Below, in pieces: positions 402 to 5,928 of a stretch of 14,652 nucleotides of DNA. Under the pieces are notes generated by a model. That model did not search any database. It was given only the letters and a program-made list of their open reading frames with translations, and was not told the DNA's origin. The position numbers were made by a program, and so were the translations under genes. The first letter of the stretch is position 1. Every line of letters begins with the position of its first letter. The stretch is from Candidatus Fraserbacteria bacterium (lineage in GTDB: Bacteria; Bipolaricaulota; Bipolaricaulia; RBG-16-55-9), in NCBI GenBank assembly GCA_037443265.1, contig JBBIOR010000002.1, positions 22,755 through 37,406 of the forward strand, in the 5' to 3' direction.

Positions 402-1436
402 TTATTGAGAAGTCAATGCCAGTAGTGCACGCTTGACGTAGACGGCCGCCATGCGCTTCCTGTAGAAGAGATGATAGTCTGTGTTGTCCAGCGGGCGCAC
501 GGGCTGGAAGACCACTTGGGCCACGGCCTCAAGCACTTCGGGCGCAATCTTCTGCCCAATCAAGAGCTGCTCGGCTTGGGTCATCTGCAGGGGAGAAGAG
601 CCCACCCCGCCCAGCACGATCTTCGCATGCTCCACCCTTCCATCCGGTGCTTGTTTTAACGCCACGGCCACCCCCAGCACCGGGAAATCAAACGAGCCGC
701 GCCGACGCAGTTTCCAGTACGTGCTTTTGGCACCGTTGGCCGGGGGTATGTGAATTTCCGTAACCAGCTCATCGTGTTGCTTATTGAGATAGAACATGCC
801 ATCGTCACGATAGAGATCTCTTACGGGAATGAGGCGTTCACCATTGCGGCTGATGAGCTTCACTTTGGCATCGAGCGCGATGAGCATGGGTGCGCTGTCA
901 GTGGATGAGACGGCCCAGCAGCGTGGGCTGCCGGGGGCCACACGACAGGGGACTTCGTTTTTTTCAGGAGCCGACTCTGGTGCAAAGGGCCAGCCCTTGG
1001 GGCCGGGAGCTTTCATGCACCAGCCGAGGGCCGCGCGCCAATGGTGCGTCTGATCGTAATAATTGCAGCGGGTGTCCAGACACAAATTGCCACCGATGGT
1101 GCCCATGTTTCTCAAAATGGGTGTGGAGATGACCCCCGTAGCTGTTGCCAGGCCGGGATAGCTCTCTCGCACCATGGGATGATTGCTGACTTCGGTGAGC
1201 GAGGTGCCCGCCTTTATGACGAGACCAGAATGTGCGTTGCCCTGAATACCCTTTAGTTCGTTCAGATGGCGGAGCCCGATGAGGTATTTGGGCAGAAATT
1301 GCCGTCGTTTCATCTTGGGGTAGACGTCGGTGCCTCCGGCGACGGGCATGGCCTCTGGCCCATAGTCCGCGAGCATCTTCACGGCTTCGCTCAGCGACTT
1401 GGGCGCAAGATATTCGAATCTGGGCAGGCGTAGCAC
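402..1436 (-). CDS. FAD-binding medium subunit with [4Fe-4S] insertion, 4-hydroxybenzoyl-CoA reductase beta (HcrB/HbaD)-like
   Basis: AGGTD and RNMGTIGGNL FAD motifs, KLRRRGSFDF, and Cys motif C124-X15-C140-X23-C164-X8-C173 typical of the 4Fe-4S-carrying subfamily. GTG start with AGGAG RBS. Confidence 0.92.
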   Translation of the reverse strand: MLRLPRFEYLAPKSLSEAVKMLADYGPEAMPVAGGTDVYPKMKRRQFLPKYLIGLRHLNELKGIQGNAHSGLVIKAGTSLTEVSNHPMVRESYPGLATATGVISTPILRNMGTIGGNLCLDTRCNYYDQTHHWRAALGWCMKAPGPKGWPFAPESAPEKNEVPCRVAPGSPRCWAVSSTDSAPMLIALDAKVKLISRNGERLIPVRDLYRDDGMFYLNKQHDELVTEIHIPPANGAKSTYWKLRRRGSFDFPVLGVAVALKQAPDGRVEHAKIVLGGVGSSPLQMTQAEQLLIGQKIAPEVLEAVAQVVFQPVRPLDNTDYHLFYRKRMAAVYVKRALLALTSQ

Positions 1437-1451
1437 GAGTGTTTATCTCCT

Positions 1452-1682
1452 TTAGCTCTTCAACAAGCGTAGAAACTCGTCGCGTGAGATCTGCAAGTCG
1501 CGCATGATCTTTCGAAGAAGTCCAGGACCGATGTCTTGGCCTCCATGTATCGGGATGGGAATCGTCTTTTTGCCAGGCTTTGTGTAGTGTGCATGTCCAC
1601 CCCTGTGCCGAGCCTTATGATAGCCGAGCCGTTCCAGCACGCGGATTACCTCGCGCGCTTTCAACACCGGCAGGCGATTCAT
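1452..1682 (-). CDS. hicA: HicA-family mRNA interferase toxin
   Basis: 76 aa, basic; LP(V)LKAREVIRVLERLGY...RHRGGH...IPIHGGQDIGPGLLRKIMRD, the HicA pattern with catalytic His retained. 4-nt ATGA overlap with hicB. Confidence 0.92.
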   Translation of the reverse strand: MNRLPVLKAREVIRVLERLGYHKARHRGGHAHYTKPGKKTIPIPIHGGQDIGPGLLRKIMRDLQISRDEFLRLLKS

Positions 1683-1924
1683 ACTGTAATCTTGTGGATA
1701 CCGACAAATCGAACCTCAGGTTCATCTTCACCGTTTTCTTCCTCAAGGCAGAGTTGGATGACTTCCTTGATGTTCTTCATAAGTTCATCCAGAGTGCGGC
1801 CTTGAGTATAGCAAGCCTGTAGCTGAGGGACCTCACCAACATAAAAACCGTCCTCGTCTTGCTCAACGATAACGTAGAACTCTCGCTGCTTTCGCTTTTG
1901 GTCTACCTTTAGGGATTTAGGCAT
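1679..1924 (-). CDS. hicB: Short HicB-family antitoxin (partial RNase H fold only)
   Basis: FYVIVEQDEDGFYVGEVPQLQACYTQGRTLDELMKNIKEVIQLCLE is the HicB core. Start placed at ATG 1924 because GAGGTG lies 6 nt upstream; the ORF-track GTG at 1933 is inside that RBS. Confidence 0.9.
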   Translation of the reverse strand: MPKSLKVDQKRKQREFYVIVEQDEDGFYVGEVPQLQACYTQGRTLDELMKNIKEVIQLCLEEENGEDEPEVRFVGIHKITV

Positions 1925-1959
1925 ATAACTCACCTCATGTTATTCTACTCCGTCACATC

Positions 1960-4344
1960 TCAGTTGTCTTCCAAGCTTTTGGGCGGCTCGACCTTGATGG
2001 GATCGGGAAATTTATAGTCGGGAATCCCCTCCGGGCCAACACGCGCTAGCCTGCCCTTCGCTTTCTCTTCCAGAGCTTTCAGCACCTTCTCCGGCGTGAT
2101 CGGGATCTCATCCATTCTAATCCCCAGAGCGTTGTAAACGGCGTTGGCCACCGCTGGAATGACGGGATTAAGCGGCCCCTGGCCCGCTTCTTTGGCCCCA
2201 AAGGGTCCCCGCGGCTCGTCCGTCTCAACGAGAATCGACTCTACTTCTGGCATCTCTTTGAATGTCAAGCTCTTATAGTCGAGCAACGAAGGGCACTTGT
2301 GAAGATTTTTGCGAAAGATCTGCTCTTCCATCAGCGCTTCACCCAGGGCCATATAGACGCTCCCCTCGATCTGGCCCTCGACCAGCAGGGGATTGATCGC
2401 CCGCCCAATGTCATGCGCCAGCCAGATCTTCTCGACTCTCACAGCGCCCGTCTCTGAGTCGCAATCCACTTGGGCCACACAAGCGGAAAAGCTGTAGGCG
2501 GGCGAAGGACCCACACCTGAACCCTTGTAATTGCCCATCTTCTGAGGGGGCTTATAGCTGCCTACAGCCCCGATTAAGCCAAATCGAGCTTCCGCACTGC
2601 GTGCGGCCTCCGCAAAAGAGAGAGCCCGCTTGGGATCTTCTCTGTCGAAGATGCGCCGCTCTTTAGCGACTAAATTTTTGACCGGCACGCCCAGTCTCTC
2701 TGCCGCGGCCTTGAAGACGAGTTTGCGGGCTTTCATCGCAGCTTGATAGGCCGCGTTGCCCATCATCATCGTCACCCGACTGGAATAGCTTCCCAAATCA
2801 ATGGGCGTCAAGTCTGTGTCGGCCGTGACCAGCTTGATGTCTTGGGGGTAGAGCCCCAGCACCTCGGCAATGACCGTCGCCAGCACCGTGTCTGAGCCCT
2901 GGCCAATATCAATCGCACCGGAGAATGCTGTGACTGCACCCGTGCGGTCGATCTTGATTTGCACTTCCGAGTGGGGCATGTCATTCCAGTAGATGGGCAG
3001 TCCAGCCCCACAGATATATGTGCTGCAGGCAAAGCCTACTCCCTTTCCTGGAGGTAGTTTCTTGTATTTCTCCCTCCAGCCCGAGGCTTCGATCACTCTT
3101 TCAATGCATTTCTTGAGGCCGTTGCTGGTGATCTTGAGCCAGTTGACGGTGATGTGATTGGACCCCGTAAGATTTCTCAGGCGCAGCGTGATGGGATCTA
3201 TCTTCAAATCTTCGGCGAGCTTGTCCAGGTGAATCTCCAGGGCATAGCGCGGCTGGGGGGTGCCATGGCCCCGCTTGGGGCCGCAGGGTGGCTTATTAGT
3301 AAAAACCCGCATCCCCTGAAAGCGATACGCGGGAATCTTGTAAGTGACCGTCTGGAGCGCGCCGGTGTAATACGTGCTGGCGACCCCGTAGGAGCCGTAG
3401 GCCCCGCCGTCTAGAAAAGATTTGAAATGCATAGCTGTGATCTTCCCATTCTTCTTGACGCCCGTCTTCACCCACATCAGCACGGGATGGCGGCCTCGAT
3501 GGGCATAGAACACTTCCTCGCGGGTGAGCGTGATCTTGACAGGGTGCCCCGTCAAGAGGCTGAGCTTGGCTGCACAGATCTCGTGTGAGAAGGGATCGTC
3601 CTTTCCGCCGAAGCCTCCGCCTACGGGGGGAGCGACCACCCGAATCTTCTGCTCCGGCAATTGGAGCACTTTCGCCAAGGCGCGATGGACATAATGGGGC
3701 GTCTGGGTTGAACTCCAAAGAGTCAGCTTCTCTTCAGCGGGGTCCCAGTATGCCAAGGCCGAGTGCTGCTCCATGGGAAGATGCGTGTTGCCCTGATAGA
3801 AGAAGACGTCTTCGCGAATATGATCCGCCTCGGCAAAGCCCGCGTCTACCTCGCCGAACTCCAGAGAGACTAATTTGTGAATATTGCCCTCGGGGCCGTA
3901 GTCGTGGATGCGCGGCTCTTGGGTGTTGAGAGCTTCTTCAATGGACATGATGGGCTTAAGCGGCTCGTATTCGATGTGAATGAGTGCGAGGGCTTCTTCT
4001 GCGATTTCTTCATCGATGGCGGCCACGGCCGCCACAGGCTCGCCCACATAACGAACCTTCTCGACGGCCAGGGCCGTCTCGTCTTGGGAGACGGGCATGA
4101 TGCCGTACTTGATGGGCAGATCTCTTCCCGTGATGACGGCCAGCACTCCAGGCAAGCTTTCGGCTCTGCTGGTGTCGATGCGCTTGATGAGCGCATGGGG
4201 CTGCGTGCTGGGCAGGAGGCGTCCAAAGAGCATCCTTGGCAGATAAAGATCGTCGGCATATTTGGCGCGTCCGGTGACTTTGGCCCAGGCGTCCACACGG
4301 GCAAGGGGCTGGCCGATCACAGAGAATTCCTTCGTTTTGCTCAT
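1960..4344 (-). CDS. Molybdopterin-binding large subunit, xanthine dehydrogenase family, 4-hydroxybenzoyl-CoA reductase alpha (HcrA/HbaC)-like
   Basis: KVTGRAKYADD, STQ, GGGFGGK, PPCGPKRGHG, DIGQGS, DLGSYSSRVT, GQIEG, GPFGAKEAGQ. RGHG, GSYSSRVT and GAKEA are characteristic of the Hcr clade. 4-nt overlap with the small subunit gene. Confidence 0.93.
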   Translation of the reverse strand: MSKTKEFSVIGQPLARVDAWAKVTGRAKYADDLYLPRMLFGRLLPSTQPHALIKRIDTSRAESLPGVLAVITGRDLPIKYGIMPVSQDETALAVEKVRYVGEPVAAVAAIDEEIAEEALALIHIEYEPLKPIMSIEEALNTQEPRIHDYGPEGNIHKLVSLEFGEVDAGFAEADHIREDVFFYQGNTHLPMEQHSALAYWDPAEEKLTLWSSTQTPHYVHRALAKVLQLPEQKIRVVAPPVGGGFGGKDDPFSHEICAAKLSLLTGHPVKITLTREEVFYAHRGRHPVLMWVKTGVKKNGKITAMHFKSFLDGGAYGSYGVASTYYTGALQTVTYKIPAYRFQGMRVFTNKPPCGPKRGHGTPQPRYALEIHLDKLAEDLKIDPITLRLRNLTGSNHITVNWLKITSNGLKKCIERVIEASGWREKYKKLPPGKGVGFACSTYICGAGLPIYWNDMPHSEVQIKIDRTGAVTAFSGAIDIGQGSDTVLATVIAEVLGLYPQDIKLVTADTDLTPIDLGSYSSRVTMMMGNAAYQAAMKARKLVFKAAAERLGVPVKNLVAKERRIFDREDPKRALSFAEAARSAEARFGLIGAVGSYKPPQKMGNYKGSGVGPSPAYSFSACVAQVDCDSETGAVRVEKIWLAHDIGRAINPLLVEGQIEGSVYMALGEALMEEQIFRKNLHKCPSLLDYKSLTFKEMPEVESILVETDEPRGPFGAKEAGQGPLNPVIPAVANAVYNALGIRMDEIPITPEKVLKALEEKAKGRLARVGPEGIPDYKFPDPIKVEPPKSLEDN

Positions 4345-4826
4345 GGTGTTATTTTAGTAGAAGAGGGTCGCGCTGCCGCCAGCTCTACGGCTTCGATGAT
4401 TTTTAAATACCCCGTGCAACGGCAGAGATTGCCCGAAAGCGCTTCTTTGATCTCTTCGCGTGAGGGGCTTGGGTTTCTGTCAAGAAGAACTTGCGCTGCG
4501 ACTAGCATCCCCGGCGTGCAGTAGCCGCATTGGGCCGCTCCACGCTCAGCGAACGTGATTTGCAGGGGATGCAGCCGGCCATTCTGCTCTAAGCCCTCGA
4601 CGGTTGTGATCTCATGGCCCTGTGCTTCGATGGCCAGAGTTAAGCACGAGAGCACCAGCTCGCCGTCTATTAGAACGGTGCAGGTGCCGCACTCGCCCAG
4701 CTCGCAGCCATGCTTGGTGCCCGTCAGCTTGAGCTCCTCGCGCAACACCTCGAGGAGGGTCTTCTGAGCAGGCACGGCTAGTTCATAGCGCTCGCCGTTG
4801 ACACATAACTGGATGAGATGCTTCAT
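4341..4826 (-). CDS. 2x[2Fe-2S] small subunit (HcrC/CoxS/XdhC-type)
   Basis: GTKHGCELGECGTCTV...SC and QCGYCTPG...NLCRCTGY motifs. Confidence 0.96.
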   Translation of the reverse strand: MKHLIQLCVNGERYELAVPAQKTLLEVLREELKLTGTKHGCELGECGTCTVLIDGELVLSCLTLAIEAQGHEITTVEGLEQNGRLHPLQITFAERGAAQCGYCTPGMLVAAQVLLDRNPSPSREEIKEALSGNLCRCTGYLKIIEAVELAAARPSSTKITP

Positions 4827-4834
4827 GCCGCTCC

Positions 4835-4864
4835 AGTCTAAGCAACTGGCAGTAGGGTTGTCAA
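4835..4864 (-). promoter_or_regulatory. Sigma70-type promoter for the hcrCAB-like operon
   Basis: TTGACA (4864-4859), 18 nt, TAGACT (4840-4835). The ATG is only 8 nt beyond the -10 box. Confidence 0.6.
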
Positions 4865-4866
4865 TC

Positions 4867-4896
4867 TTGAATTGCTTCAGTCCCGACTGCTATTGT
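4867..4896 (+). promoter_or_regulatory. Sigma70-type promoter for the moeB-like gene
   Basis: TTGAAT (4867-4872), 18 nt, TATTGT (4891-4896), with extended -10 TGn. Confidence 0.5.
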
Positions 4897-4914
4897 CTTT
4901 ACTGTGAGAGTACG

Positions 4915-5928
4915 ATGAGCAGGCCTTATGATCGCCAGATTCGCTTTGCCGGCATCGGCCAAAAGGGACAAGCAAAGCTTCAAAAAGCCCGCGTGGTCCT
5001 CGTCGGCTTAGGCGCCATCGGCTCCGTGCTCGCAGAAAGAATTACCCGAGCCGGCGTGGGATTTTTACGCCTCATCGATCGAGATTTCGTCGAGCCGGAG
5101 AATCTCCACAGCCAGGCGCTCTACGACGAGGAAGACGCAAAGCAGTGCCTTCCCAAGGCCATCGCCGCCGAGAGGAGATTGAGAGCGCTTAACTCCGAGG
5201 TGACCATCGAAGCCCTCGTAGTCGATCTCAACCCGGAGAACGCCGAAGAGTTACTGACAGATGCAGATCTCATCGCAGATGGCACGGATAATTTCGAGAC
5301 ACGCTTTCTCATCAACGACGTCTGCGTCAAGTCTCGCACGCCCTGGATCTATAGCTCAGCCGTGGAGAGCTATGGCACCACCATGACGATCCGTCCAGGC
5401 GAGACGCCCTGCTTGCGCTGCCTTTACCCCGAACTTCCCACGCCCGGCACCCTGCCCACCTGCGAGACGAGCGGCCTTTTGGGCAGCATCCCAAGTACCA
5501 TCGCCTCCATCGCCTCGGCTGAGGCCCTCAAGCTGCTCGTGGGAGGAGGCACGCCCAATCCCGGTCTACTGTACCTGGATCTCTGGGAGGGCCAATGGAA
5601 AGCCTTTCCGGTGAAACGGCGAATGGATTGCCCAACGTGCGCCTTGGGACGCTTCGAGTATCTGGACGCTCAAGGAGAGACCATGGCTGCCACGCTTTGC
5701 GGGCGAGATGCCGTCCAGCTTCGCTGCGCTCACTCCAAAGCGCTGGATCTGGTCGCGCTTGCCGCGCGCCTTCGCTCCGCAGGCGATGTCCGGCTGAACG
5801 AATATCTTTTGCAGTTCCGAGATGAGGGCATCGAGATCGTGCTCTTTGCCGATGGTCGGGCCATCATCAAAGGGGCGTCCAATGTGTCCACCGCCCGCCG
5901 CTGGTACGCCAAATACATTGGCCTATAG
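4915..5928 (+). CDS. MoeB/ThiF-family E1-like adenylyltransferase with C-terminal extension
   Basis: YDRQI, GLGAIG, IDRDFVE, DGTDNF, Zn pairs CLRC and CPTC, TCETSG Cys, C-terminal TLCGRDAVQ...FADGRAIIKG. Start moved to ATG 4915 because the longer ORF overlaps the divergent gene and the promoters. Confidence 0.92.
   Translation: MSRPYDRQIRFAGIGQKGQAKLQKARVVLVGLGAIGSVLAERITRAGVGFLRLIDRDFVEPENLHSQALYDEEDAKQCLPKAIAAERRLRALNSEVTIEALVVDLNPENAEELLTDADLIADGTDNFETRFLINDVCVKSRTPWIYSSAVESYGTTMTIRPGETPCLRCLYPELPTPGTLPTCETSGLLGSIPSTIASIASAEALKLLVGGGTPNPGLLYLDLWEGQWKAFPVKRRMDCPTCALGRFEYLDAQGETMAATLCGRDAVQLRCAHSKALDLVALAARLRSAGDVRLNEYLLQFRDEGIEIVLFADGRAIIKGASNVSTARRWYAKYIGL

Follow-up and report, generated by a model that had tools for sequence, protein, structure and literature searches.

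Whether an enzyme of the xanthine oxidase family can dispense with the glutamate beside its molybdenum, and what such an enzyme might then do, is the question raised by a minus-strand operon in a 14,652-nucleotide stretch of Candidatus Fraserbacteria DNA (assembly GCA_037443265.1, contig JBBIOR010000002.1, forward positions 22,755-37,406; hereafter the window, in whose coordinates all features are given). The operon encodes a three-subunit enzyme resembling HcrCAB, the 4-hydroxybenzoyl-coenzyme A (CoA) reductase (4-HBCR) of Thauera aromatica, and its molybdenum (Mo) subunit carries a glutamine, Q722, in place of the active-site glutamate. We find that Q722 is a genuine, clade-defining replacement of that residue in this HcrCAB-like enzyme, and that the enzymes sharing it form what is, as far as their sequences can place them, a large and well-conserved sister branch of 4-HBCR. 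Reviews hold the glutamate to be indispensable, yet a whole clade has lost it while remaining under strong selection across soil, hot-spring and subsurface phyla. Full-text literature searches, in a scope that did not take in Unciuleac 2004 and Boll 2005, returned no description of a Gln variant of this family, nor of Glu726 in 4-HBCR.

The glutamine codon and its alignment column

The HcrA-like molybdopterin subunit, of the Gln type and 794 amino acids (aa) in length, is encoded at 1960..4344 on the minus strand. Minus-strand positions 2193-2173 read AAA GAA GCG GGC CAG GGG CCG, which corresponds to K718-E719-A720-G721-Q722-G723-P724, the CAG codon of Q722 occupying 2179..2181. The sequence-only reading of this DNA had placed the codon at 2181-2179, giving K-E-A-G-Q, and both the minus-strand sequence and the open reading frame (ORF) running from 4344 to 1960 bear this out. 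In a phmmer search against the PDB, the segment 'gpfgakeagq' (to residue 722) matches 'gpfgakease' (to residue 726) of Thauera HcrA (1rm6_A) without a gap, which puts Q722 in the column of the catalytic glutamate E726, as had been proposed. The alternative that E719 might be the equivalent residue does not hold, because HcrA itself carries a glutamate in the E719 column in addition to E726. The glutamate of the Q722 column is described as the xanthine oxidase family's essential base in two papers (PMC13653126, PMC10420851).

The remaining active-site motifs are present as claimed. In the ORF translation RGHG begins at R358, with K357 before it, and lies in the active-site loop P356-K-R-G-H-G361 (3262..3279, minus strand), which retains the Hcr-type histidine H360; GGKDD begins at G246, and G246-G-K-D-D250 (3595..3609, minus strand) forms the end of the GGGFGGK loop that binds the molybdenum cofactor (Moco).

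Conservation of the glutamine

Since GAG and CAG codons are one base apart, a sequencing or assembly error, or a mutation private to the source genome, could have produced Q722, and the sequence-only reading had allowed for both. The conservation counts refute them. A homologue search over 5.8 billion proteins gave, besides the query, 119 listed sequences with 66-95% identity across residues 300-794. Every one of these 119 listed homologues has Gln; a regular expression recognized the residue in 90 of the 120 rows and the remaining 30 were inspected by eye. In a scan of genome loci with one genome per species, which yielded 80 loci at 63-91% identity, the motif [FY]GAKE[AV]GQGP is found in 79, while the 80th (L005) stops at residue 623, and the exact string PPCGPKRGHG occurs in 76. 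The reads agree, although they are not independent evidence: the probable source run covers the gene fully, at a depth of 16 and with no differing letter. Two hot-spring runs gave just short diverged pieces, and the codon is fully covered in the probable source run only. We consider the chance of an error or a private mutation to be vanishingly small.

According to their record titles, the carriers of the Gln type span about ten phyla, mostly of soil, hot-spring and subsurface bacteria. The nearest (91% identity) is another member of the Fraserbacteria, and the others are labelled Bipolaricaulota/Acetothermia, Acidobacteriota, Chloroflexota, Dormibacterota, Methylomirabilota/Rokubacteria, Armatimonadota, Bacillota, Actinomycetota, Gemmatimonadales and, in one case, a Halobacteriales archaeon. 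Some of these labels are doubtful. Three loci labelled Nitrosopolaris, Sulfotelmatobacter and Acidoferrum (L064, L022 and L053, respectively) have neighbours of the Dormibacterota type (chorismate synthase, HAD and KDPG aldolase), and in the gene tree the Bacillota loci pair with Armatimonadota and the Clostridia loci with Acidobacteriota. Such odd neighbours and pairings mean that these loci represent mis-binned contigs, horizontal transfer, or both.

Position within the xanthine oxidase family

The Mo subunit and its partners satisfy the domain set of the xanthine oxidase family: PF01315 (111.1), PF02738 (267.9) and PF20256 (222.3) in the Mo subunit, Fer2 and Fer2_2 in the small subunit, and FAD_binding_5 and CO_deh_flav_C in the flavin adenine dinucleotide (FAD) subunit. 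The conserved glutamate base of the family is the feature absent from the Mo subunit of the window. The best solved relative of this subunit is 1rm6_A (E 5.6e-191, 640 bits), the next one scoring 328 bits. Each of the three subunits scores under its curated cut-off for 4-HBCR: the Mo subunit scores 880.6 against 994.55 (TIGR03194), the small subunit 197.7 against 257.8 (TIGR03193) and the FAD subunit 254.7 against 404.55 (TIGR03195). As a positive control for TIGR03194, the Glu-bearing representative P0143 passes with 1301.7; P0124, P0125, P0126, P0127 and P0129 are also under the cut-off. Identity as an aerobic CO dehydrogenase (CoxL) was rejected (TIGR02416 329.2, cut-off 991.15), the active-site loop reading PKRGHG where CoxL carries a copper-binding cysteine, and the identities of xanthine dehydrogenase (XDH), Pao and glyceraldehyde dehydrogenase were likewise discarded, with scores far under their cut-offs.

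An exhaustive HMMER search of 1.84 billion representatives clustered at 50% identity gave 55,106 matches, the best 150 of which were listed. Among the 135 of these that have at least 700 aa, the Q722 column holds E in 117, Q in four, D in three, a gap in three, M and S in two each, and R, I, L and N in one each. Glutamate is thus dominant yet not universal in this column among uncharacterised relatives. Eleven of the 135 full-length representatives (P0173, P0175, P0199, P0211, P0217, P0222, P0225, P0229, P0231, P0241 and P0257), all uncharacterised, have a residue that is neither Glu nor Gln (R, D, I, M, L, S or N), which suggests several independent losses of the glutamate.

A FastTree tree was built from 87 rows: the window, 16 loci drawn from different phyla and the 70 top-ranked full-length representatives, to the exclusion of fragments and of representatives ranked lower. 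Nineteen Gln rows form one clade (SH-like support 98), whose sister is the Glu-type P0125, and the two together are nested in an Hcr-like clade of 35 rows (SH-like support 100) that also contains, further out, the true HcrA equivalog P0143. P0159, also a Gln row, falls in another part of the tree. The single clade and the sub-threshold scores of all three subunits uphold the earlier proposal of a distinct Hcr-like subfamily. Metagenome annotations routinely call these genes '4-hydroxybenzoyl-CoA reductase' even though the thresholds are unmet and the key residue is lost.

Clade-specific positions and candidates for a replacement base

When 116 sequences of the Gln clade are set against 16 Hcr-like ones of the Glu type, column 722 being Q in 116/116 and E in 16/16, respectively, 14 positions emerge that are at least 95% fixed in the Gln clade and nearly absent outside it. 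These are L289, T294, M305, H306, A322, Q331, T334, R678, Q722, D745 and a further four within a C-terminal extension of some 30 residues (1963..2052, minus strand; conserved R768, P775, V785 and P788) that is restricted to the Gln clade, its columns being gapped in 8-15 of the 16 Glu-type sequences. Three of them, A322, Q331 and T334, lie in the stretch of residues 322-334 (3343..3381, minus strand); residues 319-334 probably correspond to the substrate-pocket wall in structures of the family. Position 249 is variable (T, S, D, L), and position 250 is D or E in the Hcr-like relatives.

One way to account for Q722 is that the enzyme is an ordinary hydroxylase in which another residue acts as base, such as E719, three residues before Q722, or the clade-specific H306 (H in 114 of 116 clade members, and D, Q, E or K in Glu-type relatives). 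However, E719 is shared with Thauera HcrA and with 40 of the 135 representatives that keep the glutamate, and is hence not compensating for its loss; K357 is common to the Glu-type P0125, P0126, P0129, P0134 and others, and H360 is general to the Hcr-like group. Because Glu-bearing relatives carry them too, none of the three is a stand-in specific to the Gln clade, and they were rejected as compensating changes of that clade. For the same reason the earlier description of the lysine before RGHG as unusual is not supported. H306 would be a candidate base by sequence, and Gln or Ala variants of the equivalent glutamate in Rhodobacter XDH are reportedly inactive. A conserved [4Fe-4S] loop of the HcrB type, described below, fits reductive electron flow instead. 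Hydroxylation relying on a different base is in our judgement improbable, in agreement with the sequence-only reading, which had regarded the enzyme as other than an ordinary hydroxylase; a base-catalysed hydroxylase is unlikely.

Organization of the operon and cofactor genes

The minus-strand operon runs from the small iron-sulfur (Fe-S) subunit to the Mo subunit and then to the FAD subunit (C-A-B), which is the order in 4-HBCR. The HcrC-like [2Fe-2S] subunit (161 aa; 4341..4826, minus strand) has the eight cysteines of two [2Fe-2S] sites (C41, C46, C49 and C61; C100, C103, C135 and C137), and the HcrB-like FAD subunit (344 aa; 402..1436, minus strand) matches 1rm6_B with an E-value of 4.9e-48. 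All three subunits are complete, as had been stated, but the operon is not undisturbed: a hicB-hicA pair (1452-1933, minus strand) sits between the Mo and FAD genes. It consists of an ORF for a HicB-like antitoxin (84 aa; 1679..1933, minus strand; PF15919 33.3, cut-off 27) and one for a HicA toxin (76 aa; 1452..1682, minus strand; PF07927 67, E 1.6e-18) that overlaps the hicB stop by four bases. In the nearest relative (L001) the Mo and FAD genes are seven bases apart and the insert is missing.

The FAD subunit contains a cysteine-rich loop (918..1082, minus strand; C119, C124, C140, C164 and C173) that aligns to the loop of 1rm6_B, in which we take the aligned cysteines of Thauera HcrB to be the [4Fe-4S] ligands. 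The extra [4Fe-4S] loop characteristic of 4-HBCR is thus present, whereas ordinary family members have no such cysteine-rich insert. In 4-HBCR this loop serves an inverted electron flow, from ferredoxin to Mo. Of the 56 linked FAD subunits in the cluster, the 51 with a length of 300-420 aa were surveyed; every one of them has C124, C140, C164 and C173 (51/51), and 49 have C119. Between the third and fourth conserved cysteines the window and its nearest relatives, including the Acetothermia locus L011, have 16 extra loop residues, which are absent from the other lineages sampled.

Genes for cofactor synthesis accompany the enzyme. Divergent from hcrC is a gene for a MoeB/ThiF-family adenylyltransferase (4798..5928, plus strand) of Moco or thiamine sulfur-carrier activation. 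Immediately after hcrCAB, both L001 (Fraserbacteria) and L004 (Acetothermia) have genes for XdhC, two MobA/MocA-like nucleotidyltransferases, MoaA, MoaE and MoaC-MoaB. The source genome has the same block of Moco and molybdopterin cytosine dinucleotide (MCD) genes about 6.5-7 kb beyond the FAD gene (L087, contig C2, 8000-23200: MoeA, TauE-like, MoaC-MoaB, MoaE, MoaA, two MocA-like and XdhC). The spacer holds genes for a CsoR-like repressor, a peroxiredoxin, a YjeF_N protein and an NfeD/SDH-type protease, as well as unknown genes. Given the XdhC, MocA-like and Moa genes after hcrCAB, the enzyme is therefore a matured molybdoenzyme.

These observations bear on the idea that the Mo site is catalytically dead and that the complex serves as an electron-transfer or regulatory module. 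The loss of a residue held to be essential (PMC13653126) would fit such a module, but conservation extends to the Moco-binding motifs, the Mo subunit is 63-95% identical along its entire length, the genes for XdhC and MCD synthesis are adjacent, and the clade-specific positions number only 14, in a pattern that looks selected. A dead site is accordingly very improbable.

The source genome encodes a second enzyme of the family, with Fe-S, Mo and FAD subunits, that resembles PaoABC or glyceraldehyde dehydrogenase (L088, contig C1, 46453-50461) and keeps the glutamate (GVKGVGEPP). Its FAD subunit has a cysteine-rich insert of its own, and its Mo gene is interrupted at a run of N that reflects a gap in the assembly and not a split gene.

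Benzoyl-CoA metabolism in the source genome and its relatives

The source genome (1.69 Mb, 88% complete, or about 1.9 Mb in full) carries a cluster for a bzd-type benzoyl-CoA reductase (L086, contig C6, 1-18000), with BzdN at 499.8 (cut-off 453.8), BzdO at 642.2 (448.6) and BzdQ at 447.3 (380.2), and with a second activase-type subunit. Adjoining it are genes for a three-subunit KorABC-like 2-oxoacid:ferredoxin oxidoreductase, a crotonase, an amidohydrolase and an acyl-CoA dehydrogenase. Such a cluster is unexpected in a Fraserbacteria-like genome of this size. No PF02730 match, and hence no AOR/BamB-type reductase, was found in the source genome at its 88% completeness.

In a survey of 41 genomes (the source genome and 40 relatives), the Gln type, counted from 66% identity upwards, occurs in 11 and BzdO in five, with four having both; these relatives are kin and not independent.

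Gene context in other carriers

BoxC is encoded directly downstream of the hcr genes in 12 of the 80 loci, all of them from Methylomirabilota/Rokubacteria, and the coordinates place BoxB directly after BoxC in the eight Methylomirabilota genomes checked (8/8). A PaaK-like ligase is adjacent in 14 of the 80 loci, in two phyla. In L029, for instance, a single strand holds hcrC, hcrA (Gln type, 872 bits), a region including the FAD gene, BoxC (905.2, cut-off 712.3), BoxB (861.6, cut-off 499.1), a helix-turn-helix regulator, a PhzF-family gene and the PaaK-like ligase. Of 51 carrier genomes, 12 have a BoxB that exceeds its cut-off. Whereas the sequence-only reading had proposed a different chemistry or substrate, the gene context suggests, in at least two lineages, a putative position in the same pathway as that of 4-HBCR, from aroyl-CoA to benzoyl-CoA.

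In an Actinomycetota locus (L037), genes for aconitase-like large and small subunits stand upstream of the Gln-type hcr genes, and those for an HMGL-like enzyme and a 2-oxoacid:ferredoxin oxidoreductase-like protein stand downstream.

A putative reductive role for the Gln clade

The reading we favour, to which we give roughly an even chance, is that the Gln clade constitutes a reductive HcrCAB-like enzyme, with Mo (as the MCD cofactor), FAD and Fe-S centres, that would form benzoyl-CoA from an aroyl-CoA. Electrons would pass from a low-potential donor to the [4Fe-4S] cluster, to FAD, to the two [2Fe-2S] clusters and finally to Mo, where a ring substituent, most likely a hydroxyl, would be removed. 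The resulting benzoyl-CoA could be consumed by the bzd-type reductase in the source genome and by the adjacent BoxB/BoxC in Methylomirabilota. The glutamate base, which activates the Mo-OH for attack on carbon, would be unneeded in the reductive direction, and a neutral glutamine could form a hydrogen bond to the oxygen on Mo, prevent hydroxylation in reverse and take away a negative charge beside Mo.

Several points weigh against this proposal. The reductive role is inferred from sequence and gene context. Thauera HcrA keeps the glutamate (E726 in the 1rm6_A alignment), as does UcdO, a phenol dehydroxylase of the same family (E741; PMC11760930 and PMC13753352), so that loss of the residue stands out even among the family's reductases. 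Moreover, a role of this glutamate as proton donor has been proposed for oxygen abstraction by xanthine oxidase (PMC10420851). In the source genome the benzoyl-CoA reductase cluster is on a contig other than that of the hcr genes, and Oah and benzoate-CoA ligase give sub-threshold matches only, none being above cut-off; the best ligase match stands among ABC-transporter, IOR-like and short-chain dehydrogenase/reductase genes and looks like a generic acyl-CoA ligase. Seven of the 11 Gln-type relatives are without BzdO, and one genome has BzdO without the Gln type. Elsewhere, BzdO is over its cut-off in just two of 50 other carrier genomes. A general link to the bzd-type reductase was accordingly not found beyond Fraserbacteria-like genomes. 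Given this count and that of BoxB, about two thirds of the carriers, which are metagenome-assembled genomes and may be incomplete, show neither BzdO nor BoxB over cut-off, class II and Thauera-type reductases not having been searched. Finally, the Dormibacterota-type loci, the largest group, hold only sub-threshold PaaF-like and PcaF-like genes several kb away.

A rival reading gives the same scaffold a different job, in which it would reduce or otherwise convert a substrate that is not an aroyl-CoA (by abstracting an oxygen atom from a small oxo-compound or N-oxide, for instance, or by acting on a heterocycle or a cofactor precursor), with the Box and Bzd links as lineage-specific recruitments. 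The many carriers with no known benzoyl-CoA consumer over cut-off are in its favour. So is the lack of any catabolic neighbour conserved across phyla, given that only the C-A-B genes and those for Moco maturation recur, and so are the housekeeping genes (chorismate synthase, polyprenyl synthase and UbiE) among which the Dormibacterota-type loci lie. A widely shared, conserved metabolite would be consistent with the identity of 63% or more that is seen across phyla, and the three clade-specific changes in the stretch 322-334 would be in keeping with another substrate. Against it stand the tight hcr-boxC-boxB-ligase operon of Methylomirabilota (BoxC in 12/12 loci), the presence of a bzd-type reductase in four of 11 carriers and one of 30 non-carriers among the relatives, subject to their kinship, and the wide margin by which 4-HBCR is the nearest characterised enzyme (640 versus 328 bits). 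We regard this alternative as a real, if distinctly lesser, possibility.

Should the reductive role be correct, it seems permissible to speculate further, and only tentatively, that the Gln clade might represent an unrecognised class of aroyl-CoA dehydroxylases: one-way reductases that arose on the xanthine oxidase scaffold by discarding the base, and that would feed plant-derived hydroxybenzoates to BoxABC in aerobes or microaerobes and to benzoyl-CoA reductase in anaerobes such as the Fraserbacteria-like source organism. If true, soil phyla would break down phenolic acids by a widespread hybrid route that has gone undescribed. The link with BoxBC in Methylomirabilota and the bzd-type reductase of the source genome provide a concrete, testable hypothesis on phenolic-acid catabolism, and the clade offers a natural test of the role of the glutamate in the reductive direction.

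Comparison with known systems

Among characterised enzymes, Thauera aromatica HcrCAB (1RM6/1SB3; TIGR03193-03195) resembles the Gln clade most closely. Both have three subunits in the order C-A-B, two [2Fe-2S] sites, the [4Fe-4S] loop of the FAD subunit, the histidine of RGHG and the AKE motif, and for both large subunits no solved relative scores better than the Thauera enzyme. The Gln clade departs from HcrA in having Gln for E726, PKRGHG for AMRGHG and GGKDD for GARTE, as well as in its C-terminal extension of about 30 residues, its 14 clade-specific positions and the sub-threshold scores of all three subunits; many of its carriers hold the Box genes, which are oxygen-dependent, in place of an anaerobic reductase. 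Another 4-hydroxybenzoyl-CoA reductase is HbaBCD of Rhodopseudomonas palustris.

The Glu-bearing relatives P0125, P0126, P0129 and P0134, all uncharacterised, share PKRGHG, AKE and GGFGGK with the Gln clade, the closest having 52-58% identity, but they keep the glutamate and have no C-terminal extension; several, at 930-950 aa, carry a fused N-terminal Fe-S domain. Several Glu-type relatives (P0125, P0130, P0134, P0135, P0155, P0166 and P0177) are 890-950 aa long, with the match to the query starting near residues 160-185, which fits an N-terminal fusion of the Fe-S subunit.

More distant is the urolithin C 9-dehydroxylase UcdCFO of Enterocloster, compared here by description only. According to its report (PMC11760930) it is likewise a three-subunit MCD enzyme of the same family and a reductive phenol dehydroxylase, but one that keeps its glutamate (E741) and acts on a free polyphenol and not on a CoA ester. 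Xanthine oxidase/dehydrogenase and the aldehyde oxidoreductases, finally, have the same fold and cofactor set as the Gln clade but are hydroxylases that depend on the glutamate base, as described in PMC13653126 and PMC10420851.

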